DNA from: Candidatus Fermentibacterota bacterium
GTDB lineage: Bacteria; Fermentibacterota; Fermentibacteria; Fermentibacterales; JCC-6
Direction: 5' to 3'
Length of the DNA: 64,000 nucleotides
NCBI GenBank assembly: GCA_963845085.1
Contig: CAWJQI010000004.1
Coordinates: forward strand, 96,001-160,000
Positions 42,075-62,671 of this stretch are shown here, piece by piece; position 1 is the first letter of the stretch; each line of letters begins with the position of its first letter. A model generated the notes under the pieces. That model did no database searches. It was given only the letters and a program-made list of their open reading frames with translations, and was not told the origin of the DNA. Both the position numbers and the translations under genes were made by a program.

Positions 42075-42869
42075 TCAGTGGTTTTTCGGCCTGCCGAGCG
42101 TGATGCTGATGCAGCTATCGGGATCGACGCCCCTGTAGGCGGAAAGAAGCCCGCGCAGGGCTCCCTCGAGCGCCCTTGCCGGAAAACCCGTGAGGGGAAC
42201 ACCGATCCCGTCGCTGCGAAGTTCAACCTCCCCCGAGCACTTGTCGGGACAGGATTCACAGCGCGATACCGCTCCGGTGAGTATCCTTACCGCTTCGAGG
42301 GCCATCATTGAAGCAACAAGGCATACCCTTGCGGAAAGCGTTCCCAGGCTGAGCTGGGATGCCCCGTCACCGATCATCACGAGGTTCCTGCGTCTGTCGA
42401 TCGTGACAGATGAGGGGTCACCCATGCCTGCAAGGCCGCTGCACGCGACAACAGGCGTGTCCGGCAGCGCGGAAAGCCAGGCGTTGAGCAGCATCTCCTT
42501 CGATTCATCGAGGTCAAGGGCTTCGACAAGAAGGTCACACCCCGTGAACAGGGAGACCGCGTTGGCCGAATCGATGAGATCCTCCCGGGTTTCAACAACG
42601 GTCCCGGCCTCGATGCCGAGGATCTCCCGCCTGAGGGCTTCGACCTTGCGCATGCCGATATGCTCTGCGAAATAGCACTGACGGTTCAGGTTCCTCTCCT
42701 CGACCCTGTCGAAATCGATGAGAACGAGCCTTCCAACTCCGGCCCTCGCAAGCATGAGGGCGACATTGCTTCCAATCCCGCCGCATCCGGCGATGCCCAC
42801 ACTGGAGCCCGCAAGTTTTTCTCTGAGACCGGCAGGATTGTCCCTGAAAACCTCTTCACCCCTGTTCAA
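42075..42869 (-). CDS. thiF: Sulfur-carrier adenylyltransferase ThiF-like, with C-terminal extension
   Basis: GCGGIGS, LARAGVG, DFD.VE..NLNRQ, EALD, SGLAG. Confidence 0.78.
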   Translation of the reverse strand: MNRGEEVFRDNPAGLREKLAGSSVGIAGCGGIGSNVALMLARAGVGRLVLIDFDRVEERNLNRQCYFAEHIGMRKVEALRREILGIEAGTVVETREDLIDSANAVSLFTGCDLLVEALDLDESKEMLLNAWLSALPDTPVVACSGLAGMGDPSSVTIDRRRNLVMIGDGASQLSLGTLSARVCLVASMMALEAVRILTGAVSRCESCPDKCSGEVELRSDGIGVPLTGFPARALEGALRGLLSAYRGVDPDSCISITLGRPKNH

Positions 42870-42883
42870 GGCGTCCCTCCCAT

Positions 42884-44257
42884 TTACAGCAGAACGAGCC
42901 TCCGAGTGGCAGCCGTTCCGTCGGATCCCCTGTATAGAACGATGTAGGCGCCTCCCGGAAGCTCCCCCATCGGAATGACACTGCTTCCATCCCCGTCTGC
43001 CTGAATACGGGCAACCCTTCTGCCGGCGAGATCGTAGACTTCTATGGTACCCGGGCCTGATGGATGTGACACGGTGACTTCCTGAAAAGCGGGAACCGGA
43101 GACACATGGAGAATTATTGTTGATCCCGCTTCAGGATCCATGCCGGTGTACTGCGGATGCGGCCCGTAGTGGAACCCCATGTCCGCCTGGCCGGCATCGG
43201 TGACCTGGTCGGTCCTGGTCCAGTAAAGGCCCAGGCCCGATCCCGCCGAGGGCTCTGAACCCGCGTCGACACAGGGGCTGTCCTGGGGCTGCCCTGAGGC
43301 AGTCTGGGACAAATAGTACCCGTTGAGGAAGACAGGATTCTCGGAAATGTTGCCGTTCTGACCCGTTCCGTCCGGCAGGTTGCCCCAGTCACCGTCAGGG
43401 TTGCCCCAGATGCAGTTGTGGTTGAACTGCGGATCCCCCCCGCCGTCGATCCACAGTGCGGGTGTGATGTTTCCCGACACGATGCAGTCGTGAACAACCG
43501 CGCTTGAACCGACACGGAAGTAAATGGCGCTTCCCTCGTACAGGGTGGAGTTGCCTGAGAAGGTGCACCAGCCGACGTCAGGATCGGAATAGGCGTAGCA
43601 GTAAAGGCCGGCCCCGTTGTCCCATGCGTAGTTGTCGGCAAAAAGGCAGTTCCAGACGACCGGCGAACTGTGGAACAGGTAAACCCCGCCTCCGTCGTCA
43701 TTCGAGTTGTTGTCCTCGAAAACGCAGGACTGCAGCACGGCGGCGTCGGTGGAGTAGAAGTAGATTCCCGCACCTGACGTGTTGCAGGAGTTCATGTTGA
43801 ACGAGCAGGACACGAAGATTGGCGCCCCCCTCCAAAGGTATGCTGCACCACCGCTGCCCGCATGACAGCCGTTGAACTCGACAGCCGTGATGCTCGGACT
43901 TGCGTAATAGCAGAACAGGCCTCCCCCGAGCTCCGGTGCTGTTCCGCCTGTAACGGTGAATCCCGCGAGCACCGTGCTTCTGTCCAGCGTGTCCGAGGTG
44001 AAGCCGTCGAGATGGATCACCGAGGCTGAAAGCCCATCACCGTTCAGGACCACCGTTTCAGGGTCGGACATGCTGCCGAGAAGCGTAATGCCGTTGTGTG
44101 AGCCGTTCATAAACACCAGGTTTTCCCCGGAGCCCTCATGAACACCGGGCAGGAGAAGAACGGTATCACCCGCTGCGGATGCGTCCAGGGCGTCCTGAAT
44201 GCTTTCCCCCGGGGATACCTGCACAAGACCTGCAAAAACCGCCAGCAGCATGATCAT
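42884..44257 (-). CDS. Secreted right-handed beta-helix (pectin-lyase fold) protein with sorting tail
   Basis: SIQDALD..GDTV, GG(G/A)xY / FxxN repeats, SPCVDAG, DMGFHY, YDLAGR. Confidence 0.82.
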   Translation of the reverse strand: MIMLLAVFAGLVQVSPGESIQDALDASAAGDTVLLLPGVHEGSGENLVFMNGSHNGITLLGSMSDPETVVLNGDGLSASVIHLDGFTSDTLDRSTVLAGFTVTGGTAPELGGGLFCYYASPSITAVEFNGCHAGSGGAAYLWRGAPIFVSCSFNMNSCNTSGAGIYFYSTDAAVLQSCVFEDNNSNDDGGGVYLFHSSPVVWNCLFADNYAWDNGAGLYCYAYSDPDVGWCTFSGNSTLYEGSAIYFRVGSSAVVHDCIVSGNITPALWIDGGGDPQFNHNCIWGNPDGDWGNLPDGTGQNGNISENPVFLNGYYLSQTASGQPQDSPCVDAGSEPSAGSGLGLYWTRTDQVTDAGQADMGFHYGPHPQYTGMDPEAGSTIILHVSPVPAFQEVTVSHPSGPGTIEVYDLAGRRVARIQADGDGSSVIPMGELPGGAYIVLYRGSDGTAATRRLVLL

Positions 44258-45669
44258 CTCAGCACGACCGTTCCGGCCACGGCCACACCATTCGCCCCGG
44301 TGCAGCGGATGAACAGGATCCCCGCCGGGATCCCGCCCGGTACCGTCCAGGCGGTCTCGACCTCCCCACTGCACGTTACATCACCAATATCGGCGAGCAG
44401 CCTGCCGTAGAGGTCGAAGGCGGCGAGGTGAACGGCTATGGAATCGATGGAACTGATCCGTATCGTCAGCGAGCCTGTGCTCGGGCAGGGATAAAGCCCG
44501 AGTTGAAAGGGTTCCGGCTGCGGGTCCGGTGACCACAGCAAGGCAAATGGGTTGAAGTGGTACCCCATGTCGGCGGTGTTCTGGTCCGGAATGCTGTCGG
44601 TACGGGTGGAGAACCAATCGACCGGGCTTCCCGCAGCCGGAACATGACCGGCATCGAAGCAGGGGCTGTCAAGCGGCTGGCCGGAGGACAACTGTGACAG
44701 CCTGAGCAGGCTGTCGGCGTAAAGGGGGTCTTCCGAGATGTTCCCGAACGAGCCCGTGGGATCTTCCATGTTGACGTAGTTCGCATACTCGTTGTCCCAG
44801 ACGCAGCAGTGACTTACAAAAACCGATTCGTCGCTGTTCTTGCGCTGCACACCGCCCTTGCCCTGGCTGTGGGTCACCAGGCACGATTCAAGGGCAAGGC
44901 TGTCAGCCGACGATACAAGGATCCCTCCTCCGTCGTCGTTGCAGGAGTTGTCATGCAGGGTGCAGAACTGCATGAAAAGCCTTCCCCGGAGATGCATCAC
45001 GCCCCCTCCGTCATCACCGGCCTGATTGCCGTGCAGAAGGACGTTCCTTGCCGTTGTGTCACCGAGGTAGGCGTAGATCCCTCCTCCATCGTCCTCGCTT
45101 GTGTTCCAGCATACCGATGAGTGCTCGAGGAGTGCGTCACTTCCATAGAAGCACACACCTCCGCCCGACACCAGGGCGAGGTTGTTCTGCACGACCATGC
45201 CCGTCAGGGAGGGAGCACCCCCCTCCGCGAAGATACCGCCCCCCATGAGGGCGCTGTTGTCTTCGACAGTGCAGTACGAAACGGTGCAGGATGCATTGGC
45301 CATGCACAGCCCGCCTCCGCCGAACCACTGGCCCGAGACGGGGTTCCCACCGGTGAGGGTAAGGTGCCTCAGCACGGTGTCATCTCCGAGAGGGCCCTGC
45401 AGTACGATAACGGGACGATTGTACCCGGCGCCGTCAAGGATCGCGGGGCTGATTGAGTCCGACATTATCACGACGCCGTCGTTTTCTGGAAGGACGTGCA
45501 GCAGCGGGAGGTCATCGGCCCTCGTGTAGGTTCCGGTATTGAAGTACAACGTGTCACCCGCGCCAAGGGCCTGAAGGCTGTCCTGGAAGGCATCGCCGGG
45601 CCACACTTCAACCCTCGAGGCGACCGCGAGGGCACTCGGAATGATAACCAGCAGGAACAGCCACCTCAT
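44254..45669 (-). CDS. Secreted right-handed beta-helix protein, paralog of the downstream gene
   Basis: GGGI repeats, GNISEDP, SPCFDAG, DMGYHF, FDLYGR. Confidence 0.82.
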   Translation of the reverse strand: MRWLFLLVIIPSALAVASRVEVWPGDAFQDSLQALGAGDTLYFNTGTYTRADDLPLLHVLPENDGVVIMSDSISPAILDGAGYNRPVIVLQGPLGDDTVLRHLTLTGGNPVSGQWFGGGGLCMANASCTVSYCTVEDNSALMGGGIFAEGGAPSLTGMVVQNNLALVSGGGVCFYGSDALLEHSSVCWNTSEDDGGGIYAYLGDTTARNVLLHGNQAGDDGGGVMHLRGRLFMQFCTLHDNSCNDDGGGILVSSADSLALESCLVTHSQGKGGVQRKNSDESVFVSHCCVWDNEYANYVNMEDPTGSFGNISEDPLYADSLLRLSQLSSGQPLDSPCFDAGHVPAAGSPVDWFSTRTDSIPDQNTADMGYHFNPFALLWSPDPQPEPFQLGLYPCPSTGSLTIRISSIDSIAVHLAAFDLYGRLLADIGDVTCSGEVETAWTVPGGIPAGILFIRCTGANGVAVAGTVVLR

Positions 45670-47837
45670 GGAGCACCACCTGTCTTGATGAATCGGAGAG
45701 CCCTCTGCATGCCTGCATATGAAATCTGGAGGAAGTACACGCCTGAAGGAAGGGCTTCCACTTCGACAGCAACCGAATGAGTGCCTGCATTCAGGTCCAG
45801 TTCAAGGGGGGGCATCGCTTCCCTCCCGGCCAGGTCGAACACCCTCAGAACACATGCCCCCCCGGGATATACAAGAACCGATGCCGATGCGAAACTTGTG
45901 GCAGGGTTCGGATGGAGGGAAAAGAGATCAAGGGTGTAATCCGGTGTCCAGGGCGGATCGGAGCTGTTGGACAGCCCCGGAGTGCCTCCGTCCGGGATCG
46001 CCGTCCAGGAGGCGGGATCCGAGTTATCCCTTTCCGGGCTCGAAAGGGCGAGACTCCACCCGCCGTCCGCCGGTTCCGACGGCCAGGGATGGAAAGGAAG
46101 ATAGGGAACGTAGTCGACCTGATTGCCAAGGTGGTCGTAGAGCCTGAGTATCTCGCCTTCGGCAGAGAGCCCGAACTGAAAGGGATCAGGGTCGGCATTG
46201 CAATCACGATATGTGTTGATGAACGCTTCGGGGTTCTGCCGCAGCACAAGGTATGCGCCGGGGTCAAGCACGATGTCGCTTATCACGTGGAGGTTCCTGT
46301 CCTGCGTGTCCCGAAATGCCCAGCCACCAAGATCAACGGCTTCGGCCCCGGCATTGTAAAGCTCCACCCAGTCATCGGGGGCGATCAGGTCGCCGTTCCT
46401 GTAAAACACCTCGTTTATTACGATGCTGCCGGTTCTTGCGACAACAGGTGATGGTGCGAGGCGAACCGATCTGTTGAGGGCCCTCTCCTCCCTGAACGTG
46501 TTGTACGCCCTCACCTGAAGGTAGGTTATCGAGCCGGGGCCGGCGCCGGGGTCATGGATCAGGATCGAGGTGTCGCCAGTCTCGGTCTCCCAGAATACCG
46601 CGGACTCGTCAAGGAATGTCGAATCCGTGGACAGGCTTACCCTGTACCGGGAGGATCGCTCAGCATCCGACCATGTTGCGAGGATCTCATCCGGATCGTA
46701 CTGCTCGGTCGGGTGGAGGAGGAATGGAAGCGGCCAGGAAGCGAGCATCTCCTCAAGCGCTGAAAGCCTTGCTGCCGGCCAGTTCCTGATCACGTCAACA
46801 GAAGCCTCGAACTGGGCCATGGAGTAGTCCCGAAAGGGATCGACCTGTACAAGAGGTTGCGCCAGGGCTGCCAGCGAATCGATCACACCGCCTGCGGACC
46901 AGGCGAGAAACTCCGAAGACCGCTCTTCGAGCCTTTCCAGAATGAGCTCCCTCAGGTGCGGAATCGCCCACAGACGGTACAGAAGGACATTGGGTTCGCA
47001 GGAATCGTTCGTCACCCAGTAGTAGGGCAGGTCCGTTCCGTACGCCGACCCCCATGTCTTGTCCATGTCCCAGGGGACCATCCTCCATCTGCCGAAGGTT
47101 CCCGGTGCGTCCAGCACCATGTGGTAGTTGTGGTAGTACGTGCTGCCATGACCGAGGAGCGTATTCGCTGCAATGCAGTCCAGAAGGGCGTCGAAGTGCG
47201 TCCTGCCCGCCAGGTCACCGACGAACACGCTGTCGGGGCAGGTGAGCAGCCAGCGTATGAGCCATTCCAGATCATCGGTTGGAAGGTCCTCGAATGTTTT
47301 CTTGAGGTAACGGTTCAGGACGTGAGGGGAGTTGAGGGAGGATCCGTATTCCCTGCATTTGTAGATGACCGCATCGTCAGGCAGCCATGTTCTGAGCGCG
47401 AAGTCGCCGTCCACGTCCTCGACGAACAGGTAGGGGCCCTGGGTGGCGCCGTTGTACACAACCTCGGTCATGGCGACAAAAGGAACGATCTGTCCGCAGT
47501 ATTCGTGAAAAAGGTAGGACAGGTTCTCCCTGATCCTGCTTCTATCAGTGTACTCGGTGTTGAGGTTCAGCTCGTCGAAGCCGTGCAGGAGAAAACCCGG
47601 TGCAAGTCTCACCTTGATCGACTTTTTGGGATAGTAACTGCTGCTCTGTCCCCTGATCTGCATCGTGCACCCGCATGACAGGGAACCGGACGAGAGGGCT
47701 GCATCGACGAGTATCTCCTGGTCAGGATGGGCGCAGGCAAATGCCCACTCCTCGGGATCGAACTCCAGGGAAATCGTCACCACGGTATCCGGCCATGCGG
47801 ATACCGCTGACAGAAGAACGAGCATCATCGCAGCCAT
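45666..47837 (-). CDS. CotH-family kinase-like protein with lamin-tail domain and sorting tail
   Basis: IRGQSS..PKKS, HNY, PWDMD; INEV..DWVELYN..GTPG lamin tail; PNP..FDLAGR..GVYF. Confidence 0.85.
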   Translation of the reverse strand: MAAMMLVLLSAVSAWPDTVVTISLEFDPEEWAFACAHPDQEILVDAALSSGSLSCGCTMQIRGQSSSYYPKKSIKVRLAPGFLLHGFDELNLNTEYTDRSRIRENLSYLFHEYCGQIVPFVAMTEVVYNGATQGPYLFVEDVDGDFALRTWLPDDAVIYKCREYGSSLNSPHVLNRYLKKTFEDLPTDDLEWLIRWLLTCPDSVFVGDLAGRTHFDALLDCIAANTLLGHGSTYYHNYHMVLDAPGTFGRWRMVPWDMDKTWGSAYGTDLPYYWVTNDSCEPNVLLYRLWAIPHLRELILERLEERSSEFLAWSAGGVIDSLAALAQPLVQVDPFRDYSMAQFEASVDVIRNWPAARLSALEEMLASWPLPFLLHPTEQYDPDEILATWSDAERSSRYRVSLSTDSTFLDESAVFWETETGDTSILIHDPGAGPGSITYLQVRAYNTFREERALNRSVRLAPSPVVARTGSIVINEVFYRNGDLIAPDDWVELYNAGAEAVDLGGWAFRDTQDRNLHVISDIVLDPGAYLVLRQNPEAFINTYRDCNADPDPFQFGLSAEGEILRLYDHLGNQVDYVPYLPFHPWPSEPADGGWSLALSSPERDNSDPASWTAIPDGGTPGLSNSSDPPWTPDYTLDLFSLHPNPATSFASASVLVYPGGACVLRVFDLAGREAMPPLELDLNAGTHSVAVEVEALPSGVYFLQISYAGMQRALRFIKTGGAP

Positions 47838-50362
47838 ATCATTCTTCCCGCGCTTGTGTCACCTGCTGAACTCACAACAAGAAAATACACTCCCGAGGGC
47901 AGTCCGGGGGGCGGCTCGAGGGAGTACTCTTCCACACCCGGCTCAAGCATGCCAATATCGTGCACCACCCTTCCCGCCAGGTCGACAAGAAGCGCTGATA
48001 CAGGGCTGTCGACGGCTGATACCGAGAAGTAGACCCGGTCATGCCCGGCTGGAACAGGATGGATGCAGCGCAATTCCAGCGGCTCGGAGACATGCAGGTC
48101 CCAGGAGGCGTTCGGTGAACCCGGAGTGCCGGGATACATGACAACCTCCCATGATTCTGCATTCTTCGGGTCCTTGTCCGGACCAATAAGGGAGAGTACC
48201 GCATCTGATGCGTCCGCCCATGGGAGTTCCGACCCGAAGGTCAACAGGTTGGAGGTAGAACCTGTACGGCTGATGAAACGAAGTGTTTCACCTTCCGCTG
48301 AAAGGTCGAAGCCAAGTGCGGTCACACCACACTGAAGCCTCGGGTGAGCGAGGAGGAACGACTGCGGGCTGGATGCAAGGATGAGGTATCCGCCGGGAGG
48401 AATCCCGGTCCCTGCGGGAAGCACCGTGAACCCTTCTCCGGAGTCGGATATCCCGGTGAGGGACAGGTCCAGCCATCTCCCGTCAGGGTTGTGGAGCTCA
48501 ATCCAATCGCCCGAGCCCGCGCACTGCGGCTGTGAGTAGCACAGTTCGGTCAGAAGCGGGATGCAGTTGCCGATTCGGAGAAGTCTTTCCCCTGGCGGAA
48601 CCAAGTGAGTGGTGGCCGGGGTCCATGAAGGATCGCAGATCATGACAACCGATGAAGAAACGGAAGGAGCGGCGCAGTCACCTGCTGCTTTCCTCCCTGA
48701 AAGCGTAAGCGAAAAGGCATCGAGATCGTTGGTTACGAACAGTGTTTCTCCAGGCGCGAGCAGCAGGCTGTCCGGGAAGAAAACGCTGTAAGGCGGATCG
48801 CCCAGCACAGCCTGACAGAGAGAAAGATCCATCGTTGTGCAACTCTCGTTCACCATGGGAAGAGCCCAGAGGGAAGGTCCCAGGCGTATCTGGGTTCCAG
48901 GAAGGAGCATTTCCACTTCAGGTTCCGCGTCAACACGAACAACCGAGGGAAGCGCTTCGTTTCCATAGGTATTCCCGTATATCCCGTATGAAGGATAATA
49001 AATTGTAGGGGTCGGTTCAGGCAGATTGGCCTGACGATAGTAAACAAGGAAACGCATTGACTCTTCGAATGCTGCCAGAGCTGCAATCCCGGCAGTCCAC
49101 TCCCTGCCTCCTGACCCTTGAACCTGATGCATTTCAAGTTCTTCGGGATCATCATTATCAGGAACAACATAAAGCGTGCACCACGCAAGAGAATCTGAAG
49201 AAGAGAAGTTCACCGCGAGAATCCGGTCATCCGGAGTAACCCATCCCGGTTCGATGGACAGGGAAGTGAACTCGGGAGGGTTGTGATGCACCGACAGTTC
49301 GCGCACGACGGCGGAACGCTCCGTGATGAACAGCCTGAGGGAGTCGCAGGCCGATTCGAAATCCGCCGGAGTTCCCTGTCTGAGAGGATCCTGATACACA
49401 TCAGCCCTGATGCTGTTTCTGATCGAATCCAGACTCATCGGCAGTTCGTTCTCAAGAATATCTGCCGCCCTTTCCAGGTCCTGACCGAATTGTTCTCTAT
49501 GGCTGCACTCCGCGAGCGCTCTTGGGAATAGCGAGTTCATGTACATGGGCTGGTAGTAAACTGCTTCGACCCTTGCGAAGTCGAACAACCCCCTCCAGTC
49601 ATTCCCGAAGGATGCGTCGTGGTCCCATGGATAGTACCTCCACACCCCGTCCACACCGAGAATCAGAAAGTAGTTTTTCACGCAGCAGTCCATGTCAAAG
49701 ATTGCAAGGTTCGCTGCCATATTCCCAACGAAGGATTCCACTTCGAAACGGCCTTCATATTCGCCGCCACGGCATACATCCCCGATGAGCCGTACAAGCT
49801 CCGGAATACCGTACTCGTCACCGCTCCTGCATTCAAAACCATCATCGGGCGGGTGCCCGGAGAGGAACGGAACCAATCTTGCCTGACTTCCCACAGCCTT
49901 GAACACCGCACCATCGGGCAGGCCGTTCCTTGCAAGGAAGTCATCATCCACGCGTTCAGTCTCAAGGTACACACCCATGTTGGAGCCGTTGATGGAGAGC
50001 GTGACATGTCTGGTCATCGGAGCCGGGTACCCCATCCGCCTGACCAGTTCCATTGCCAGGTGGTTCCGCATCATGCTCAAATCCCTGTAATGAGCGTCGA
50101 GGAGCAGTTCGCAGCGTCCGATCATGCCTTCATCGAACAACTCCATTCGCCAGGATTTCTTCGGCAGCTCAAGCGATGTGCTCCCGCGAAAGCCCACCAT
50201 GCAGTCGCACTCCCCGGAAGGACAGGATATGTGTGCCGGGTAGGTCGTTTCCGTCTCCGGATACCCGTAAAGCGCTTCAAGATCCTCGGGAGCCATCGTC
50301 ACCTCGTAATGCCAGAGGTCCCCGGTCAGAATGACGGCAATCAGCAGCATCATCGCAGCCAT
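47825..50362 (-). CDS. CotH-family kinase with lamin-tail domain and sorting tail
   Basis: FRGSTS..PKKS, YRDLSMMRN, DCCVKNY, PWDHD; TELCY..DWIELHN..GTPG. Confidence 0.87.
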   Translation of the reverse strand: MAAMMLLIAVILTGDLWHYEVTMAPEDLEALYGYPETETTYPAHISCPSGECDCMVGFRGSTSLELPKKSWRMELFDEGMIGRCELLLDAHYRDLSMMRNHLAMELVRRMGYPAPMTRHVTLSINGSNMGVYLETERVDDDFLARNGLPDGAVFKAVGSQARLVPFLSGHPPDDGFECRSGDEYGIPELVRLIGDVCRGGEYEGRFEVESFVGNMAANLAIFDMDCCVKNYFLILGVDGVWRYYPWDHDASFGNDWRGLFDFARVEAVYYQPMYMNSLFPRALAECSHREQFGQDLERAADILENELPMSLDSIRNSIRADVYQDPLRQGTPADFESACDSLRLFITERSAVVRELSVHHNPPEFTSLSIEPGWVTPDDRILAVNFSSSDSLAWCTLYVVPDNDDPEELEMHQVQGSGGREWTAGIAALAAFEESMRFLVYYRQANLPEPTPTIYYPSYGIYGNTYGNEALPSVVRVDAEPEVEMLLPGTQIRLGPSLWALPMVNESCTTMDLSLCQAVLGDPPYSVFFPDSLLLAPGETLFVTNDLDAFSLTLSGRKAAGDCAAPSVSSSVVMICDPSWTPATTHLVPPGERLLRIGNCIPLLTELCYSQPQCAGSGDWIELHNPDGRWLDLSLTGISDSGEGFTVLPAGTGIPPGGYLILASSPQSFLLAHPRLQCGVTALGFDLSAEGETLRFISRTGSTSNLLTFGSELPWADASDAVLSLIGPDKDPKNAESWEVVMYPGTPGSPNASWDLHVSEPLELRCIHPVPAGHDRVYFSVSAVDSPVSALLVDLAGRVVHDIGMLEPGVEEYSLEPPPGLPSGVYFLVVSSAGDTSAGRMIWLR

Positions 50363-52896
50363 ATCATTCTTCCCGCGCTTGTGTCACCTGCTGAACGAAC
50401 AACAAGATAGTACACCCCCGAGGGCAACCCCGGGGGAAGCCCGAGCGAACGCTCCTGCAGGCCGGGTTCAAGGATCACGGGGTCAAGCACCATCCTTCCG
50501 GCCAGATCGAAAACAAGCAATGAAACAGGGCCGATGCCTCCGGAAACAAAGAAGTGCACCTCACCGGCCGTGACCGGATTCGGTCGTATCGACCGGATCA
50601 GGACGTCACCGCCTTCGCACTGGAACCATGATGGATTTGCCGTGCCGGGAGTTCCCGGCTGCTCCGCCGCTTCCCAGGATGCCGGCTGAGAGAGGTCGGC
50701 TGATGGATCAATCGCGGCGATGATGCCGGATTCTGCTTCCGGCCAGGGTGGGTCTTGGGAATAGCTGACGAGATCGGTCGGGTGCCCTGCCCTGTTGATG
50801 AAACGAAGGGTTTCTCCATCGGATGAAAGGCTGAAACCCATGTCCAGCACCGGGCAGCCCGGATCGGGGAATTGTTCGAGGAAAAGATCCGTGTTGGACG
50901 CGAGTACGAGAAAGCCGAACGGAGGCATCAGTGTGCCTTCCGGGAACACCATGCGTCCGGGATCCGAACCGGCAATTCCGGCATTGGACAGATCAAGCCA
51001 GTCCCCTCCCGGGTTGTAGCACTCGATCCAGTCGCCCGGGTTGGCGTTCACCGGCTGCGCGTACGAGATCTCCGTGACAAGCGGGTGATCGTTCGTGGGA
51101 CGGATTGTCCGCTCGGACAGCGGGACCATGTGACTGATGCCGAAACACCAGCCGGGATCGAAAAGCGTTGCCCAGGAGCCGGTGGCGGAGATGGCGCTGC
51201 AATCCCCCACAACCGTCCTTCCCGGGAGCTCGGTTGAGAACGCCTCGGAATTGCTGGCGACGAACAAGGTCTCACCCGGGGCCAGTATCAGGTTCTCCGG
51301 GAAAAAGACCCTGTACGGAGGATCGCCCACGGCAAGATAGCACAGCGAGAGGTCCATCGCTGAACCGCTTTCGTTGACCATTGGAAGCGCCCATAATGAA
51401 GGACCGAGCCTGATCGGTTGTGCAGGAAGAAGCAGGGAGGGGTTCGGAGCTGCCTCAACCCTTACTGCGGAGGGAAGAGCCTCCTCGTTGTAGACCCCGC
51501 TGAAAACTGAATATGGAGGAAAGAACAGGGGTGGCTCCGGCCAGGAAAGGTCGATCTGGCACATCTTGACGAAGAAATGAAGGTCATCGCCGAGCCATTC
51601 GTCGGCGCTGATCATCACGCTCCATTCCTTTCTGCCGGTCCAGGCCACGGGCTGCATTTCCTTTTCGAAAATGAGCCCCGAATCGGAATAGGCGAAGAGG
51701 CGGCACCAGAACAGGGAATCCGAGGAGTACGCAGTGATGGCAATGCTGTCGGTTCCGGGGGTTATCCAGGAAGGTGCTGCAAAAAGGGAGAGCGAGTCGG
51801 GTCTGCTGTGGTGGGAGGCGAAGCCGGGAAGCATCTCGGCGCGCTCTGTTATAAACCACCTGAGGCTGTCGCACGCTGCTTCGAAATCGTCAATGGTCCC
51901 CTGTCTCAGAGGATCGAGCATTACATCGGCGCGTATCGCACTCCTTACGGAATCAAGGCACGCTGTCAATTCCGTCGCCATGATCGACGCAGCATCATCC
52001 AGCATCTCGTGGAATGCCTGCCTGTGAACGGGATCCCTCATGATGCCTTGAAACAGCGGGGAGACAAGCATCTGATCCGTGTACGGCCATCCCGCCAGTT
52101 CCCGATGAAATTCACCCTGCCAGTCGTTTCCGAACGATGAATCATGATCCCATGGAAAGTAGCGCCATACGCCGTCTGCTCCAAGGCTCAAGTAGTAGTT
52201 CTTGCACGGACCATCCTGCTCCATCATTGCCAAATTCGCAACCATATTGCCGATAAGCGGTTCCATGTCGATCGAGTTCTCGAACCCACCGTGGCCGCAC
52301 ACGGATTCAATCAGTCGGAGCAGTTCCGGAAGCATCCATTCGTCACCGGTCCGCCACTCGAATCCATCCCCCCTGGGATGGCCGGAGAGGAAGGGTGAGA
52401 ACCTGCCTGCACCGCTGACGGCTTTGAAAAACGCCCCGTCGGAAAGACCGTTCCTTGTCAGAAACCCCTCGTCGATCCGCTCGGTCTCAAGGTAGACGCC
52501 CATGTTCTCGCCATTTATGGACAGGGTAACATGCCTCGTGAGGGGTGCGGGGTATCCCATCCTCCTCACCAGCTCCATCGCAAGGTGGTTTCTCATCATC
52601 GAGAGATCCCTGTAGTGGGCGTCGAGATTGACCCTGGAGCGGCCTGTAAGCCCTTCATCGAACACATCGATCCGCCATGACTTCTTGGGGAGATGAACCG
52701 ATGTGGTGCCACGGAAGCCAACCAGGCAGTCACTCTCCCCCGCGGGGCAAGAGATGTGTGCCGGGTACATGGCTTCCGATTCGGGATAGCTGTAAAGCTC
52801 TTCGAGATGCTGCGGATCCATGACCATCTCGTAATGCCACAGACCCTGTGCCTGAATTGCAGATACGAGCAGGAACAGGAAGGTCACAGCGTGCAC
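50350..52896 (-). CDS. CotH-family kinase with lamin-tail domain and sorting tail
   Basis: FRGTTS..PKKS, DGPCKNY, PWDHD; collinear paralog of 47825-50362. Confidence 0.87.
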   Translation of the reverse strand: MHAVTFLFLLVSAIQAQGLWHYEMVMDPQHLEELYSYPESEAMYPAHISCPAGESDCLVGFRGTTSVHLPKKSWRIDVFDEGLTGRSRVNLDAHYRDLSMMRNHLAMELVRRMGYPAPLTRHVTLSINGENMGVYLETERIDEGFLTRNGLSDGAFFKAVSGAGRFSPFLSGHPRGDGFEWRTGDEWMLPELLRLIESVCGHGGFENSIDMEPLIGNMVANLAMMEQDGPCKNYYLSLGADGVWRYFPWDHDSSFGNDWQGEFHRELAGWPYTDQMLVSPLFQGIMRDPVHRQAFHEMLDDAASIMATELTACLDSVRSAIRADVMLDPLRQGTIDDFEAACDSLRWFITERAEMLPGFASHHSRPDSLSLFAAPSWITPGTDSIAITAYSSDSLFWCRLFAYSDSGLIFEKEMQPVAWTGRKEWSVMISADEWLGDDLHFFVKMCQIDLSWPEPPLFFPPYSVFSGVYNEEALPSAVRVEAAPNPSLLLPAQPIRLGPSLWALPMVNESGSAMDLSLCYLAVGDPPYRVFFPENLILAPGETLFVASNSEAFSTELPGRTVVGDCSAISATGSWATLFDPGWCFGISHMVPLSERTIRPTNDHPLVTEISYAQPVNANPGDWIECYNPGGDWLDLSNAGIAGSDPGRMVFPEGTLMPPFGFLVLASNTDLFLEQFPDPGCPVLDMGFSLSSDGETLRFINRAGHPTDLVSYSQDPPWPEAESGIIAAIDPSADLSQPASWEAAEQPGTPGTANPSWFQCEGGDVLIRSIRPNPVTAGEVHFFVSGGIGPVSLLVFDLAGRMVLDPVILEPGLQERSLGLPPGLPSGVYYLVVRSAGDTSAGRMIWLR

Positions 52897-52928
52897 CCCT
52901 CCAATTCCATGCCTCCTTTCGCGGCTTC

Positions 52929-53621
52929 TCAGTACTCCACGTCGTTGCAGGATGAAACCATGTTCACATTGTCCACGCCGACGAGTGCGTTAAGGCTCGT
53001 GGCAATGGCGGCGGGAGTGGTCCCGGGGGAAAGCCTGATGTCGTAGGTGAGGATCAGGTACTTGCCGCCGCCGGAGGGCTCAACATGGATCAGGGTGCTG
53101 TTTCTGGAGAGCCTGCGGATGATCTCGACGTGTTGTTCCTCGCCGCCGGCCTCGCGGTCGTACCGGAACCTCAGGATGAACTCGCTCTGCATCATGCTGC
53201 CGTAGTTGGTTTTGGCGAGCAGCCAGGCCACGATGCAGATGAACACCGTGGAGAGCACGGCAAGCCTGATGTTTGCCGTGCCGCATGCTATGCCTTCAGT
53301 GAGGGCAAAGAAGATGAACGCCGTGTCACGGGTGTCTTTGACCACTGTCCTGAATCGCACTATGGTGAGGGCGCCCACCAGCGCGAAGGCTCTGGCCAGG
53401 TTGCTTCCGATCACCATCATCACGGAACAGACGATAAGGCTCATCAGGACAAGCGTGATTACGAGTGATTGGGAGTATGAGAGCCCCCTGTGGGTCCTGC
53501 GGTACACGTACCCGATGAAGAGGCCGATCAGAAGCGATGCGAGAAGGTTCTCGAAAACATATAGAAGACTGTACCCCATGGTCTGGTCAACCTCGGTGAA
53601 CCAGGAGATCAAAGCGGCCAA
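52929..53621 (-). CDS. DUF4956 membrane protein
   Basis: VIGSNLARAFALVGALTIVRFRTVVKDTRD signature; TM helices plus soluble C-terminal domain. Confidence 0.88.
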   Translation of the reverse strand: MAALISWFTEVDQTMGYSLLYVFENLLASLLIGLFIGYVYRRTHRGLSYSQSLVITLVLMSLIVCSVMMVIGSNLARAFALVGALTIVRFRTVVKDTRDTAFIFFALTEGIACGTANIRLAVLSTVFICIVAWLLAKTNYGSMMQSEFILRFRYDREAGGEEQHVEIIRRLSRNSTLIHVEPSGGGKYLILTYDIRLSPGTTPAAIATSLNALVGVDNVNMVSSCNDVEY

Positions 53622-54391
53622 CTGCGCCCCCTCTCAACCATCCTGTCAAGCATGGAACGGGAGTTGAGCATCCATAAACGCTCTCCTGCCGTGTGAAACT
53701 TGGAGAACGAGATGCGTGTAAGCTCAAGGCCCTGCGTCAGCCTGTGAAACCAGGCGGGGAGATGGTAACGGAACTTTATCTCAAGCACTGAGAAATCCGA
53801 TGAAAGGTCTTCTTCGTTCCCTGTGGGAAGGCCGTCCCTTCCCGCCTTCCATGCGGTAACCCCCCTGTCGATGGTAGCCCGGAAATCCGGGTTGGCTGCG
53901 TTCTCAAAAGCGGTTCTTCTGTAGTCAACCACAAGGCTCGGGGAAAGCCTGTTCCTGAAACAGTCCGCCACGAAATGGCGCCCCACGCCGTTGCAGCCCT
54001 CGCTGTCCATGACAAAACCGCAGAGCTTCGAGGTACCTCCCGCCAGAGCTTCCCGGAGCCCCTCGGCCGGCATGATGTGCCTGTGCTTGTAAACAAGGCA
54101 GTCCTGCTTGCCTTTCAGCTCGAGGAACACAGGATCGGCCGAGCCCGGGTTATACGACCTGATCCGGAACTTGTACCTCGAGTGAAGACCGTCGGTTTTC
54201 TGCTGGTGATATGCGAAATTGGATGTGTCGAAATATAGGCTCCTGACGCTGTACGACCCGTCTGCTGCGGAATGAGAGTCACGCTCCATCCGGTTTTCGA
54301 TGGCGCCAAGAACGGAGGTCTCCGTCTGACCGGAGACAAGGTATTTGAACTCGTACCTGTGAAAATGCAGCTTGCGCATGGATGAATCCAT
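53609..54391 (-). CDS. VTC-domain (polyphosphate polymerase / CYTH tunnel) protein
   Basis: RYEFKY, VRSLYFDT, KFRIRSY, FLELK, YRR.AF, RATID, VLEIKF, FSKF. Confidence 0.9.
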   Translation of the reverse strand: MDSSMRKLHFHRYEFKYLVSGQTETSVLGAIENRMERDSHSAADGSYSVRSLYFDTSNFAYHQQKTDGLHSRYKFRIRSYNPGSADPVFLELKGKQDCLVYKHRHIMPAEGLREALAGGTSKLCGFVMDSEGCNGVGRHFVADCFRNRLSPSLVVDYRRTAFENAANPDFRATIDRGVTAWKAGRDGLPTGNEEDLSSDFSVLEIKFRYHLPAWFHRLTQGLELTRISFSKFHTAGERLWMLNSRSMLDRMVERGRSWPL

Positions 54392-55416
54392 CAGAACCTG
54401 ACCCCCAGCTCCGTGATGTAGTCGGTGCAATCATCCCGGGAATCATCCTGAAAGCTCCTGTTGATCATCGTGAACCTGAGCCTTGTTCTGGAGGTCATCC
54501 AGACCCCTATCAAAGGCGCGACGAAACTCTCCTCATCCGAGCCGTCCACCTCCGGCGCAAGCACAGACCAAGAGACTCCGGCTTCGATGGATCTTATCCC
54601 GGGAACGCTCCCGAGCCTTTGTTCCAGGACCCCTGAAGCCCAGTAGCCCCTGAAACCGGGCGGGGTTTCACCGTAGATCACATCGGCTTCATCCCAGTTG
54701 TCTCCCGCAACGTACTCGGCATCAAGCTCTAGCCTTGTGCTGAAAGTGACGGGCTGATCCAGCCTGAGGAATGCAGAGAACGCCTGCATGCTCCCGGAGG
54801 AGGCATATCCCGAGGGCAGCATCGGGTCGTATTCCCCGAGGCGCAGGCTTGACAGAGCGCCCCCCATGGTCAGGGCGGCCACGGGCTCGAACTCGATGGA
54901 AGCGGTGTACATCTTTTCCCTCTCATTCCCGGGGCCGTTAAAAACTCCGAGAGAGAGCGTAGACTGAAGCGGAACAGGCGATGAAAGCTCGACCATTGCT
55001 CCCGTTGAGCGGTCGGAGTATCCCAGGTCGCCGGCAAGATCGTGTATCAGCGGACGCTCCACTGAAAGAAGGTTCCAGTTGGACGTGGATGTTGCCATGC
55101 AGAAGGGCTTTTTAAACAGCCCCGCTGTCAGTTCCAGATAGTCGAGTGGCGACCAGGAGATGATGCAGTCCTTGAGATAGACCTCGTCGGGTCGCGTTTC
55201 CACCTCAATTTCGACGGCGAGGTTCCCCCCGAGGTCTGAGCCGGCGGTCAGGCTTGCCCGCTTGATGAGGAATTCACCGATCGGGCCGCATGTGATCTCG
55301 CCGAGCATCTCATGCCGGGCGTACACCTGCCCGGAAAGCTCTACGGCTGCAGCCGGCGCGACCAGGGCCGAGGCCATGAACAGAGCATGCAGATGGCTGA
55401 ACGAAAAAAAACGCAT
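54391..55416 (-). CDS. Outer-membrane porin (OprO/OprP-like)
   Basis: Signal peptide; F.IKRA.L, LKD, L.AGLFKKPF, VER, GVFNG; C-terminal ELGVRF beta-signal. Confidence 0.72.
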   Translation of the reverse strand: MRFFSFSHLHALFMASALVAPAAAVELSGQVYARHEMLGEITCGPIGEFLIKRASLTAGSDLGGNLAVEIEVETRPDEVYLKDCIISWSPLDYLELTAGLFKKPFCMATSTSNWNLLSVERPLIHDLAGDLGYSDRSTGAMVELSSPVPLQSTLSLGVFNGPGNEREKMYTASIEFEPVAALTMGGALSSLRLGEYDPMLPSGYASSGSMQAFSAFLRLDQPVTFSTRLELDAEYVAGDNWDEADVIYGETPPGFRGYWASGVLEQRLGSVPGIRSIEAGVSWSVLAPEVDGSDEESFVAPLIGVWMTSRTRLRFTMINRSFQDDSRDDCTDYITELGVRF

Positions 55417-55473
55417 TTTCCACACTCCGTTACTGGATTGGAAAGCTGAATATAGCGGTATGTCCGTGTTCCG

Positions 55474-56541
55474 TCAGAGCCAACCCTTTCTGCGGAACCA
55501 GAGCAGCATTCCGATGGCGATCAGCGCACAGAGCAGCAGAACCGCCGGATAGGCCCATGGATATGAAAGTTCCGGCATGCGTCTGAAGTTCATTCCGTAG
55601 ATGCCGGCAATGAATGTGAGCGGTATGAAGATGGTCGAGATTATCGTCAGGACCTTCATTACGCTGTTCGTACGGTTGCTCACGCTGGACAGGTACACGT
55701 CGAGGAGCCCCGAGGCCATGTCCCGGAAGGACTCAACCGTGTCCATGATCTGTATGGTATGGTCGTGAAGGTCCCTGATAAAGGGCTGAGTCCCCGGTTT
55801 TACCAGTGCCAGTGCATCGCGCATCAGGATGGCAAGGCCGTCGCGCAGCGGCCATACCGCCCTTCTCAGAAGGATCAGCTCACGCTTGAGCCTGTGGATC
55901 ATGTTTGCGACTTCCTGGCCCGCGTGATCCGTGACCTGATCCTCTATGGCGTCGACGTCCTCCCCCATCTTCTCCAGTGCAAGGAAGTAATTGTCGATGA
56001 CCGCGTCCATCAGGGCATAGGCGAGGTAATCGGCGCCCTGTTTCCTGATCAGACCCTTGCCGGAGCGTATCCTTTCCCTCACCGGATCGAACACGTCCCC
56101 CTCTTTCTCCTGGAAGGTGATCACCACGCTGTCCGCAAGGATGATGCTGACCTGTTCGATGTCCAGTTCCCCGATTTTCTCATCATATCTTATCATTTTG
56201 ACCACCATATAGATGTGGTCATCGTAAACTTCCACCTTGGGACGCTGGCTGGTATGGAGAATGTCCTCCTGGACCAGGGGATGCACCCCGTAACCACTGC
56301 ACAGCTTCGCCACGAGATCGGTGTCGGACAACCCCGTGACATTCAGCCATTTCACCCTGGGTGATTCTTTGCGGAGCATGGCTGTTTCGACTGAAACCGA
56401 GCCTGTCTCGGTGACTCCGGTTCCGTCGAATTCGATCAGTTCGAGGCTGACTGCCGATGCGTGTTTCTCTCCGACATGTATGAGCGTTCCCGGTGCCTTG
56501 CCCGATTTAAGGCTGTGCCCCCTGGCGTAAAGACGGCTCAT
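55474..56541 (-). CDS. corA: Magnesium/cobalt transporter CorA
   Basis: HPLVQEDI..QRPK, FQEKEGDVF, GIYGMNF, MPEL. Confidence 0.95.
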   Translation of the reverse strand: MSRLYARGHSLKSGKAPGTLIHVGEKHASAVSLELIEFDGTGVTETGSVSVETAMLRKESPRVKWLNVTGLSDTDLVAKLCSGYGVHPLVQEDILHTSQRPKVEVYDDHIYMVVKMIRYDEKIGELDIEQVSIILADSVVITFQEKEGDVFDPVRERIRSGKGLIRKQGADYLAYALMDAVIDNYFLALEKMGEDVDAIEDQVTDHAGQEVANMIHRLKRELILLRRAVWPLRDGLAILMRDALALVKPGTQPFIRDLHDHTIQIMDTVESFRDMASGLLDVYLSSVSNRTNSVMKVLTIISTIFIPLTFIAGIYGMNFRRMPELSYPWAYPAVLLLCALIAIGMLLWFRRKGWL

Positions 56542-56661: not shown

Positions 56662-57771
56662 CTACTCGGCGGGATGGGGATAATCAATGATGTACAGCTT
56701 CTGCCACTCCACGGGATTCAACGGGTATGCCACGACGGCATCGGGTCCGAAACAATAGTCCCACACGGTGCCGTCCATCGCGGGCATGTTCACTGTGAAC
56801 AGCTGGTTTCCATCGTAGTCATACACGTCGAACACGGGTTCGGCCACTGTCCCCCGGCGAATCCAGAGACGCTCCATGCCGTCGGTTTCGACCTCTGCGA
56901 TCGCATCACGGCATGGGTCGGGCGTGAAGCTGATAACGACTCCCGACGCTCCAACGCTTGAGAGATACCCTTCGATCCACTCCTTCTCCTCCTGGATCTC
57001 TTCGGGTGTCTTGTTCACCGGGGGGCATTCCCTCTCGATGGTGAGAAACCTCTCACCCCCGGCTCTGAAACCCTCCACAATGTAGTCGGGGGAAAGGTGC
57101 GCGAGAAAAACGTTCCCCTGCCTGTCCGCTGTGAACACAAACCCGTAGAGGCTGTTTCTGAGCATGTGGGTTATGTCCGTCGGATCAAACGGGAAAGAGT
57201 TTTCCCAGTAGATGACGGAAGGCTCTTCGTCCCCCTCTTCGTACCTGCCGATCAGAACGCGGCATTCCAATTCGTCGCCAACCTCCTGCACCGAGAATCG
57301 AATCGCAATGAAAGCGCTTCCGTCAGCGCCACGCAGCTGCATCGGGGGGTTGTTCAGAAATGGGGTCACGAGGCCCAGCCACTCACCATCCATTGAGAAG
57401 GCATGCAAACCGCCGCTCCATGGAGAGCAGACCATAACCCTGCCGTCCTCGGTCACATACATGTCCAGCGGGTTCATGAGCTCACCAGGACCGCTCCCCC
57501 TTCGACCGAATGATCCGACAAATCCGCCGTCAGCCGAGTAGCGGCTGACCCGGCATGCCGCCCTGTCCAGCACCAGGATGTCACCCTCCATGTCAAAACA
57601 GGCTGACTGGATCCAGCCGAACACATAGCAGCTGTCTCCGATCTCGATCCCGATCGAATCCCTGAGAGTGGATTCGAGAATCGTTGGGGCGTTGTTCGAC
57701 GCATCCGTTCCAGGGTTGCCTGAACCGCAGGCGAGAAGCAACATGCAGGAAAGCAGCGCCATCTTTTTCAA
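56662..57771 (-). CDS. 6-bladed beta-propeller (NHL-like) lipoprotein
   Basis: Lipobox LLAC; GDILVLD, FGRRGSGPGE..P, FDVYD.DG. Confidence 0.8.
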   Translation of the reverse strand: MKKMALLSCMLLLACGSGNPGTDASNNAPTILESTLRDSIGIEIGDSCYVFGWIQSACFDMEGDILVLDRAACRVSRYSADGGFVGSFGRRGSGPGELMNPLDMYVTEDGRVMVCSPWSGGLHAFSMDGEWLGLVTPFLNNPPMQLRGADGSAFIAIRFSVQEVGDELECRVLIGRYEEGDEEPSVIYWENSFPFDPTDITHMLRNSLYGFVFTADRQGNVFLAHLSPDYIVEGFRAGGERFLTIERECPPVNKTPEEIQEEKEWIEGYLSSVGASGVVISFTPDPCRDAIAEVETDGMERLWIRRGTVAEPVFDVYDYDGNQLFTVNMPAMDGTVWDYCFGPDAVVAYPLNPVEWQKLYIIDYPHPAE

Positions 57772-57842
57772 ACAGGGCCTCCTTCTCCGGTGTTCGGAAA
57801 ACGGACGGCCCTGTTCTGCCGAATGTTACACCGGCCCAGGCT

Positions 57843-58058
57843 TCAGCCCTTCCTCCGGGAAAGGTAGTTCGCCTTCACCCATGGCCAGTTGAGGGAGAGG
57901 TGCAAAAGCCCCAGCAGCAGCAGCAACATCCCTGCGATCGGATGCATGAGTTTGAAGTGCTCGTAAAAACTGAACCGGAGAAACCCGGTCGCACCCTGGT
58001 ACAGAAGGACGACGAACATGACGGGGTTCAGTGTCTTCAGCGCTTTCTGCCTGTTCAT
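57843..58058 (-). CDS. Small two-TM His-containing membrane protein (DUF4405-like)
   Basis: ATG..H...G....LHLSLNW.W. Confidence 0.65.
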   Translation of the reverse strand: MNRQKALKTLNPVMFVVLLYQGATGFLRFSFYEHFKLMHPIAGMLLLLLGLLHLSLNWPWVKANYLSRRKG

Positions 58059-58142
58059 GGCATTCCCTCCGCTGGTTTTCCTTTACGGGCCGTTCTCATT
58101 ATATGTTGTACCGGCCAGAAGTATAAACGAAAAGGAGAAGAC

Positions 58143-58691
58143 ATGATAAGGAGACTCGTGGGCTTTCAGGCACTGCTTCTAATGGTGCTCCTTCCCTCAT
58201 GCACCAACGGTTCCCAGGGGCAGGCCGAGTCAGCCGGAGGCCCCGGCGAACCGGTCGTTTACACTGCCGACGGTGTAACTCTCACCATGCACCTGTACAC
58301 CGACTCGATCCATGTCATCCTTTCAGCCCCCACGACCGGATGGGTCTCAGTCGGTTTCGAGCCGTCCCAGGTCATGAAGGACGCCGATATCTACATCGGT
58401 TATGTTGAAAACGGGACCGTTCTTCTCCGCGATGACTTCGGCACTGGAAACACCTCCCACGCTCCCGACACGAGCCTCGGCGGAGCAAGCAGTTACACAG
58501 GGCTTTCCGGAACGGAGAGCGGGGGGGTCACCGAGATATCCTTCATGATCGCCCGCAACCCGGGTGATCCGTATGACAAGGTTCTGACGGCGGGCGGCAC
58601 CTACAAGGTGCTTGTCGGGTACGGACCCGACGACGCCGACGATTTTACAACATACCACAGCTGGGTCAAATCGGTCGATCTCACTCTCTGA
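58143..58691 (+). CDS. DOMON-domain lipoprotein
   Basis: AGGAG RBS; lipobox LPSC; APTTGWVSVGF..MKDADI.IGYV; C-terminal H. Confidence 0.82.
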   Translation: MIRRLVGFQALLLMVLLPSCTNGSQGQAESAGGPGEPVVYTADGVTLTMHLYTDSIHVILSAPTTGWVSVGFEPSQVMKDADIYIGYVENGTVLLRDDFGTGNTSHAPDTSLGGASSYTGLSGTESGGVTEISFMIARNPGDPYDKVLTAGGTYKVLVGYGPDDADDFTTYHSWVKSVDLTL

Positions 58692-62332: not shown

Positions 62333-62671
62333 ATGAGCAAAATCGCTTACTGCGGTCTGGATTGCGAAGGCTGCCCGGCCTTCGTGGCCCATCTCACGAA
62401 CGACCAGGCCCTGCGGGAGAGAACCGCTGCGGAATGGTCCAAAGCCTACGATGCAAACATTCTGCCTGACGGAATCGACTGCACGGGATGCATCAGCACG
62501 GGGGTCCAGTTCTCCTGGTGCAGCTCCGGCTGCCCTATCAGAAAATGTGTGACGGGCAGAGAGCTTTCCTCCTGCGGTGCGTGCGCCGACTACCCCTGCG
62601 ACAGCCTGGGCTTCATCATCAACCACTGCCCGGAAGCCAGGGAACGGCTGGATGCCGTCGGTAAAAACTAA
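62333..62671 (+). CDS. DUF3795 Cys-rich protein
   Basis: AYCGLDCEGC, CTGC, CPIRKC, CGACADYPC. Confidence 0.85.
   Translation: MSKIAYCGLDCEGCPAFVAHLTNDQALRERTAAEWSKAYDANILPDGIDCTGCISTGVQFSWCSSGCPIRKCVTGRELSSCGACADYPCDSLGFIINHCPEARERLDAVGKN

Follow-up and report, generated by a model that had tools for sequence, protein, structure and literature searches.

A porin-VTC-DUF4956 module with CotH proteins in Candidatus Fermentibacterota: a predicted polyphosphate supply for surface kinases

In the eukaryotic VTC complex, known from yeast (Vtc4/Vtc3/Vtc1; PDB 3g3q, 8i6v and 7ytj), a tunnel domain with nine catalytic residues works with an obligatory membrane partner that carries conserved basic residues, and synthesis is proposed to be coupled to membrane passage. 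In bacteria, cotH, poly-phosphate polymerase and DUF4956 genes have been described as accessory genes of Gram-positive pel loci, where the authors suggest that cotH regulates by phosphorylation (10.1101/768473), and the same trio appears in the table of the NELoc-2 locus of C. perfringens (PMC2879425). In the passages covered, which came from outside subscription journals, the literature on the cotH/VTC/DUF4956 trio reports the neighbourhood only, with no functional test and no export or donor model, and DUF4956 appears in two papers as rows of expression tables (PMC10434189, PMC13454231). Here we analyze a locus with the identical three families adjoining in a Candidatus Fermentibacterota bacterium (assembly GCA_963845085.1, contig CAWJQI010000004.1, positions 96,001 to 160,000 of the forward strand). 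The names given to the nearest homologues agree with this host. This whole stretch of 64,000 nucleotides (nt) is referred to as the window, and all positions without a locus or genome label are positions in it. The locus comprises eight genes on the minus strand, encoding a porin, a VTC domain protein, a DUF4956 membrane protein, three CotH proteins and two beta-helix proteins. It differs from the pel and NELoc-2 loci in that its host is a diderm, the porin is of the OprO/P family, the CotH proteins carry tails of the type IX secretion system (T9SS), and the operon contains no polysaccharide synthase.

Many bacteria export kinases of the CotH type. As the periplasm and cell surface are generally regarded as free of ATP, the phosphoryl donor of these kinases is in question. 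The module described here is real and conserved, and its predicted role is to supply polyphosphate to surface kinases. On the best reading, it would act as a VTC complex that is split into separate proteins and reaches out to the cell surface. Overall, we give a probability of about 40% to the proposal that the cell makes and exports polyphosphate, which surface CotH kinases then use in place of ATP.

The first-pass annotation had placed eight same-strand open reading frames here, and all of them lie on the minus strand at the positions it gave. The junctions were verified as well, at 54391 (end of the porin gene and ATG of VTC), 53609-53621, 50350-50362, 47825-47837, 45666-45669 and 44254-44257, with a gap of 32 nt between DUF4956 and CotH1 and 48 nt between the end of the upstream corA gene and the porin frame. 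Pfam searches bore out the family labels of the eight genes and corA, with E-values of 9e-5 for Porin_O_P (barely over the cut-off), 2e-36 for VTC, 2e-15 for DUF4956, 3e-48, 1e-45 and 2e-41 for CotH1, CotH2 and CotH3 (143-165 bits vs a cut-off of 23.8), 4e-10 and 6e-14 for Beta_helix in proteins 1 and 2, and 5e-74 for CorA, whose gene product also matches TIGR00383 at 7e-97. Scans of the locus for promoters (5 vs 5.0) and terminators (18 vs 13.4) stayed at chance level, so the operon status is deduced from gene packing only.

The VTC gene (53609..54391) is present in single copy and encodes a predicted polyphosphate polymerase of the Vtc4 triphosphate tunnel type, without a signal peptide. The VTC domain alone spans the 260 amino acids (aa) of the protein, scoring 126 bits vs a Pfam cut-off of 23, and a profile of 105 VTC homologues matches yeast Vtc4 (3g3q) at an E-value of 7e-23. 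According to a cryo-EM preprint on the yeast complex, residues K200, R264, R266, K281, Y359, R361, E426, S457 and K458 of Vtc4 bind triphosphate or Mn2+ and are required for synthesis, and K458 sets Vtc4 apart from the inactive Vtc2 and Vtc3 (10.1101/2023.01.27.525886). All nine are kept in the bacterial protein, as K16, R76, R78, K93, Y157, R159, E204, S230 and K231 in that order (Vtc4 numbers being hand-counted on the 8i6v alignment), and they are invariant or at least 90% conserved among the 105 sequences, with K93 and S230 in the latter class. The catalytic domain had been annotated as stand-alone, and it does have an intact Vtc4-type active site with neither SPX nor membrane helices. As its catalytic protein is free, without SPX or a fused three-helix membrane domain, and has another partner, the locus, judged from its sequences, does not count as a eukaryotic-type VTC complex. 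Regarding other enzymes of polyphosphate metabolism, neither PPK1 nor PPK2 was found in any of 25 genomes (the host genome, 88% complete, and 24 of its family), Ppx gave no match over the cut-off and one under it in the same set, and CHAD and PHO4 were not found in the host genome. By these searches, VTC would be the sole known polyphosphate maker here, without a known cytoplasmic consumer. We consider it quite probable that this protein makes polyphosphate.

DUF4956 (52929..53621; 230 aa, single copy) is the candidate translocator. Its model (pLDDT 80) consists of five long helices followed by an ACT-like domain at the C-terminus, which is the build of MgtC. The C-domain matches many ACT folds, among them the MgtC C-domains 2lqj and 7qa5, in fold searches that were filled by ACT-like domain matches and barely covered the membrane part; the Pfam MgtC match is weak (6e-4, 20.7 bits) and falls under the cut-off of 31.4. 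Unlike members of the MgtC/SapB family, DUF4956 has a motif of its own, R77, R89, R91 and K95, which is invariant in 109/109 homologues, and it always accompanies VTC in the loci examined. By the positive-inside rule, these residues would sit at either end of helix 3. The channel of yeast VTC is lined by basic residues of its inner helices, and translocation depends on them (PMC9911596). The modelled build differs from that of three-helix Vtc1, to which we detected no homology, so a channel role is proposed by analogy with the yeast basic residues, not by homology. The inner-membrane channel postulated by the first-pass annotation is better put as a candidate role of a protein with five predicted membrane helices and an MgtC-like build. 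Profile and fold searches showed no likeness of DUF4956 to nucleotide carriers. On balance, and by analogy, we slightly favour translocation by DUF4956.

The porin gene (54391..55425, with a likely start at ATG 55416) lies directly before VTC. Its product was modelled with 16 strands (pLDDT 89), and its best TM-scores were 0.72 to Pseudomonas OprP (2o4v) and 0.70-0.71 to OprO (4rjw), with general porins outranking both by E-value in the structure search; with the sequence profile, only OprO and OprP matched at E<0.01. The phosphate site of OprP consists of K121, R133 and a basic ladder. Here, at about 13% identity, the loop-3 motif keeps an equivalent of R133 (R or H), and K102, R136, R192 and R314 are further conserved basic residues, while K121 is not kept, the protein is net acidic and the gene stands beside VTC instead of pst. 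By family and fold, the protein is an OprO/P-type porin, as the proposed outer-membrane route assumed, with the phosphate site kept only in part. Elsewhere in the genome, a second Porin_O_P gene stands in the pst region, in the order histidine kinase, Porin_O_P paralogue, pstS, pstC, pstA, pstB and phoU (L172, G000:C4:467500-476500). This arrangement shows, at the level of gene order, that the Porin_O_P family is tied to phosphate in this lineage and that uptake is already served by a porin of its own, directly before the pst operon. The pst-linked paralogue is equally acidic (-22), so acidity is compatible with a phosphate role. Outward passage of polyphosphate through the VTC-linked porin seems to us evenly balanced between yes and no. 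The genome has a third match to Porin_O_P, a short one (L173:3279-3962).

To define the conserved core, we compared 20 loci centred on VTC from relatives of the host and 31 loci of other phyla, the latter collected through a DUF4956 alignment of which the best 80 of 465 matches were kept, 49 of these being Fermentibacterota-like. DUF4956 follows VTC in 20/20 relative loci, the porin directly precedes VTC in 19/20, and a CotH kinase domain is present in 16/20 (17 with one contig-cut gene). Beyond the phylum, VTC stands with DUF4956 in 30 of the 31 loci, CotH in 20 and a porin in 2, both of them gammaproteobacterial loci where a Porin_O_P gene (1e-66) immediately precedes VTC (in a scan of 64 chosen open reading frames). 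Gene order varies, cotH mostly preceding the porin outside the host genus; among seven loci of the same genus, five have two cotH genes, one has three and one is contig-cut. By these counts, porin-VTC-DUF4956 and CotH together form the conserved core, and corA and the beta-helix genes are local. The expectation that VTC-DUF4956-CotH neighbourhoods occur in other bacteria, and that relatives keep the porin and CotH with VTC, was thus borne out. Two further suggestions were not. CorA (55474..56541, minus strand), once proposed to provide Mg2+, adjoins the module in 7/20 relative loci, every one of the host genus, and in 0/31 of the other phyla, and lies outside the module. The beta-helix proteins 1 (44254..45669) and 2 (42884..44257), both acidic, secreted and lineage-restricted, had been put forward as kinase substrates; the pair is present in 6/20 relative loci, with homologues in 0/31 loci of other phyla. 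Many of these loci encode a CotH with a fused beta-helix, which gave no full-length match to either gene of the locus and, by this comparison, is not the counterpart of the two stand-alone genes.

We also recorded arrangements that recur around the core. In nine loci of relatives, a convergent operon of peptidase C25, TPR, a CotH/beta-helix/LTD/FlgD fusion and an LTD protein abuts DUF4956. In twelve loci from Deltaproteobacteria, Planctomycetota, Verrucomicrobia and others, a gene of 340-410 aa (with weak TPR matches in some) precedes a CotH-beta-helix fusion of about 930 aa and VTC; three of this set have metallophosphatase genes upstream. Another locus (L154:1839-7566) has the order CotH, VTC, DUF4956 and HlyD-type adaptor.

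Co-occurrence was then counted across genomes. In a sample of 41 related genomes (the host, 34 of the same order and six distant ones), VTC and CotH exceed the cut-off in the identical 21/41, and four family members that are 94-98% complete have neither, one of them with a weak CotH match under the cut-off. VTC gives one match per genome and CotH up to eight, many distant from VTC. An orthologue of the porin (E<1e-100) is found in 20/21 VTC genomes, always adjoining VTC, and in 0/20 of the others, which carry distant paralogues only. Among 151 genomes of Planctomycetota, 36 have both VTC and CotH, five VTC only, four CotH only and 106 neither; among 201 of Pseudomonadota, four have both, two VTC only and 16 CotH only. 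Each phylum sample includes one seed genome picked for having the module. Among control genomes, the cultivable Corynebacterium glutamicum, Bacteroides thetaiotaomicron and Methanosarcina acetivorans also have VTC and CotH. Besides, in a CotH-less genome the gene after DUF4956 and VTC encodes an EF-hand/PPDK_N (dikinase-like) protein of 813 aa, possibly another consumer (L160:7045-11057), and a genome in which no VTC was found has a cotH directly followed by a DUF4956-like gene (L157:6782-9009).

The three CotH proteins are CotH1 (50350..52896), CotH2 (47825..50362) and CotH3 (45666..47837). In CotH1, residues R62, K71, E139, D228, N233, W249 and D250 align with the B. cereus CotH structure 5jd9. 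The motifs DGPCKN/WD of CotH1 and DCCVKN/WD of CotH2 match D224, N229 and D247 of 5jd9, and the spacing of the catalytic residues in both agrees with D228/D251 of B. subtilis CotH. CotH2 is a tandem duplicate of CotH1, with 54% identity over 842 residues and a DNA repeat period of 2525; an identical 25 nt precede the starts of CotH2 and CotH3. In CotH3, the Ser of STYYHN replaces the catalytic Asp, as in 9/43 aligned CotH rows. These Ser-type rows include CotH-beta-helix fusions of 1110 residues, on the same strand as the peptidase C25 gene in relatives, and in a quick tree CotH3 falls in a clade of its own (SH-aLRT 100). The annotation of the CotH proteins as kinases therefore holds for the catalytic residues of CotH1 and CotH2 and fails for CotH3, which is likely, by its motif, a pseudokinase or an altered enzyme. 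Fam20A is known as the pseudokinase partner of Fam20C, and this analogy suggests a similar part for CotH3.

The spore-coat kinase CotH of Bacillus (5jd9/5jda) shares the kinase fold and the catalytic Asp, Asn and W-D motifs with CotH1 and CotH2, and differs in that the spore form lacks a signal peptide and works in the mother cell with ATP, the adenine of which is sandwiched between Tyr142 and Trp245 (10.1101/469122). In the present locus, CotH instead shows a signal peptide, LTD, a T9SS tail and, at the position of Tyr142, Lys. This Lys is found in all three CotH of the locus and in 35/43 CotH from VTC loci, with the Trp245 equivalent kept, in an alignment that hinges on a one-residue offset between the chain index of 5jd9 and the paper's numbering, deduced from Trp245 and the start of L124. 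The same position holds Tyr in spore-type CotH (3/3 and 5jd9). We regard Lys as a lead only, possibly marking an altered nucleotide pocket, because CotH of genomes that gave no VTC match can have it as well.

Proteins with T9SS type A tails are sent to the cell surface. Tails of this type (TIGR04183) exceeded the cut-off in CotH1, CotH3 and beta-helix protein 2, fell under it in CotH2 and gave no match in beta-helix protein 1, and 87 tail matches were counted genome-wide. The search for secretion genes covered SprA, PorU and PorV. It returned a PorU-like gene (under the cut-off) next to a PorV-family gene (over it), and an SprA match split over two consecutive frames of 471 aa and more than 1368 aa (L170, G000:C1:243500-251000), which may be a natural split, a frameshift or an assembly error. 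The signal peptides, judged by eye, together with these tails and genes agree with the earlier description of the CotH proteins as secreted. LTD matches were found in all three, that of CotH2 below the cut-off. All surface proteins of the locus are strongly acidic, beta-helix protein 1 having a net charge of -34. The T9SS-type tails would place CotH at the cell surface, and for this reason the porin would be needed.

In Pseudomonadota, 14 of the 16 genomes with CotH and without VTC have an NTT/TLC ATP/ADP-carrier-like gene of 420-440 residues right after a cotH. Two of these genes were scanned and match Pfam TLC at 1e-11 and 7e-9; the genes also match the ADP,ATP carrier of known structure, 9j3n (2e-6). 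No NTT/TLC carrier was found in the Fermentibacterota family genomes searched. The carrier-linked CotH have Leu or Phe in place of the Arg of the RG motif, and Gln or His (15/15) at the Tyr142 position. The function of ATP/ADP carriers of free-living bacteria is described as not known (PMC5381601). This pattern is consistent with exported CotH needing an exported donor, of which VTC-DUF4956 would be one supply. Extending it further, one could propose that bacteria run outside kinases by exporting the donor through two interchangeable supplies, either a split VTC-DUF4956 polyphosphate synthase-translocase (here with a porin) or an ATP/ADP carrier, and that in this lineage the T9SS-displayed CotH are surface kinases which depend on polyphosphate, have a remodelled nucleotide pocket and work beside a CotH pseudokinase; in this general form we find the idea doubtful. 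The carrier operons of marine-type Pseudomonadota without VTC (L135-L150 and L166-L168) have the order GT2, GH113, CotH (some with SH3 repeats), NTT/TLC carrier and ManC.

In the mechanism that we propose, the Vtc4-type enzyme would make polyphosphate from ATP at the cytoplasmic face of the inner membrane, a DUF4956 oligomer would thread it into the periplasm, and the dedicated OprO/P-family porin would let it out of the cell. There, CotH1 and CotH2, likely held at the surface by their T9SS tails, would use it as phosphoryl donor towards surface proteins or a glycan, with CotH3 as a catalytically altered partner, and one single-copy porin-VTC-DUF4956 supply line could serve all CotH of the genome. 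Gene identities, residues, linkage and co-occurrence are direct observations; from them we infer the four functional steps of synthesis, translocation, porin passage and use by CotH, which are not independent of each other. We read the module as such a supply line because the Vtc4 site is intact, VTC, CotH and the porin co-occur, uptake has its own porin and no PPK, nor any Ppx over the cut-off, was found, and also because of the T9SS tails on CotH, the carrier swap in Pseudomonadota and the invariant Arg/Lys of DUF4956 helix 3. That polyphosphate is the donor for CotH falls, in our estimate, slightly short of an even chance.

Several observations weigh against this supply line. OprO/P porins are known as importers; the present porin has a net charge of -23 (family median -19), has Thr aligned with K121, and was found in only 2/31 VTC/DUF4956 loci beyond the phylum, with a lineage-built profile and many short contigs. 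In VTC, Glu14 takes the place of Vtc4 Thr198 and comes closer to ExExK, the motif of hydrolytic tunnel enzymes, and in DUF4956 the MgtC-like build with an ACT-like domain is typical of regulators. The co-occurrence counts overstate the linkage because kin are not independent, and VTC occurs without CotH in 2/6 Pseudomonadota and 5/41 Planctomycetota VTC genomes. A strict kinase link is also at odds with two CotH-less genomes in which a short DUF4956 (190 aa, without the full ACT-like tail), VTC and a PHO4 phosphate transporter follow one another (L151:6621-9772 and L153:4518-8512), one of them continuing with a phytase-like gene. As for the kinases, the only characterised CotH uses ATP (10.1101/469122), 8/43 VTC-locus CotH have no Lys at the Tyr142 position, and Lys is also present in CotH at four loci (L137, L155, L158 and L159) of genomes in which no VTC was found. 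Finally, the carrier-linked CotH are one clade of one lineage, a carrier follows cotH in 0/4 CotH-only Planctomycetota genomes, and another 16 of the 201 Pseudomonadota genomes, one of them with VTC, also have NTT-like genes.

One could argue that polyphosphate is exported as an envelope polyanion or as a phosphate or cation store, and that the CotH proteins bind, trim or anchor it, or have a regulatory part only, without taking it as a kinase donor. The DUF4956-VTC-PHO4 operons without CotH, the loss of the catalytic Asp in CotH3, the strongly acidic surface proteins, corA upstream in the genus and the fact that yeast VTC fills a store all speak for it, but CotH1 and CotH2 have full kinase motifs, no PPK2 or Ppx was found to recover a stored polymer, and the ATP/ADP carrier beside other CotH suggests that a phosphoryl donor is required; we consider a store rather unlikely. 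Export may also not take place at all. VTC would then work in the cytoplasm, hydrolysing triphosphate or making short chains, DUF4956 would sense or regulate phosphate or Mg2+ status in the manner of MgtC, and the porin would be an importer of phosphate or pyrophosphate, with the genes linked by shared regulation. This would suit the MgtC-like build with its ACT-like domain, the extra Glu14 in the tunnel motif, the acidity of the porin and the service of its paralogue to the pst importer. It would leave the exported kinases without a donor, however, and would not account for the joint presence and absence of the porin orthologue, VTC and CotH, for a second porin beyond the pst-linked one, or for the overlap of VTC and DUF4956 (20/20 relative loci, with a shared locus in 30/31 of the other phyla), and we judge it unlikely.

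A different donor, such as ATP, another nucleotide or a short chain like triphosphate, could instead pass through DUF4956 to CotH, long polyphosphate not being the working product. Of the nucleotide site, the CotH proteins of the locus retain the hinge Glu and the counterpart of Trp245, the characterised CotH uses ATP, a lineage without VTC pairs CotH with an ATP/ADP carrier, and Vtc4 is slow when its domain is isolated. Set against this, DUF4956 does not resemble nucleotide carriers, Lys stands where the second adenine-stacking residue would be, and the full VTC polymerase site would be left without explanation, which makes such a donor very unlikely in our view. We therefore keep polyphosphate supply to surface CotH kinases as the reading of the module. 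If true, it would give a function to two widespread families, bacterial VTC and DUF4956, and would establish a PPK-independent polyphosphate route in bacteria without PPK1 and PPK2. It also predicts an extracellular kinase with polyphosphate as donor, which would be an undescribed way of phosphorylation outside the cell. What this locus contributes beyond the described systems is a porin whose gain and loss follow those of VTC, T9SS tails on CotH and a CotH of the Ser type, and it adds a porin and exported kinases to what is known of the eukaryotic VTC complex.

Regarding the flanks of the module, a thiF-like adenylyltransferase gene (42075-42869, minus strand) begins 14 nt past the last beta-helix gene and follows the module in most loci of the same genus. 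Convergent with it lies a gene for an M16 peptidase with four domains in one chain (39398-42064, plus strand). Upstream of corA, we found genes for a beta-propeller lipoprotein (56662-57771, minus strand), a DOMON protein (57684-58691, plus strand), a TPR-GGDEF-like protein, assigned by eye (58711-60492, plus strand), and a transglutaminase-like protein (62668-63792, minus strand).

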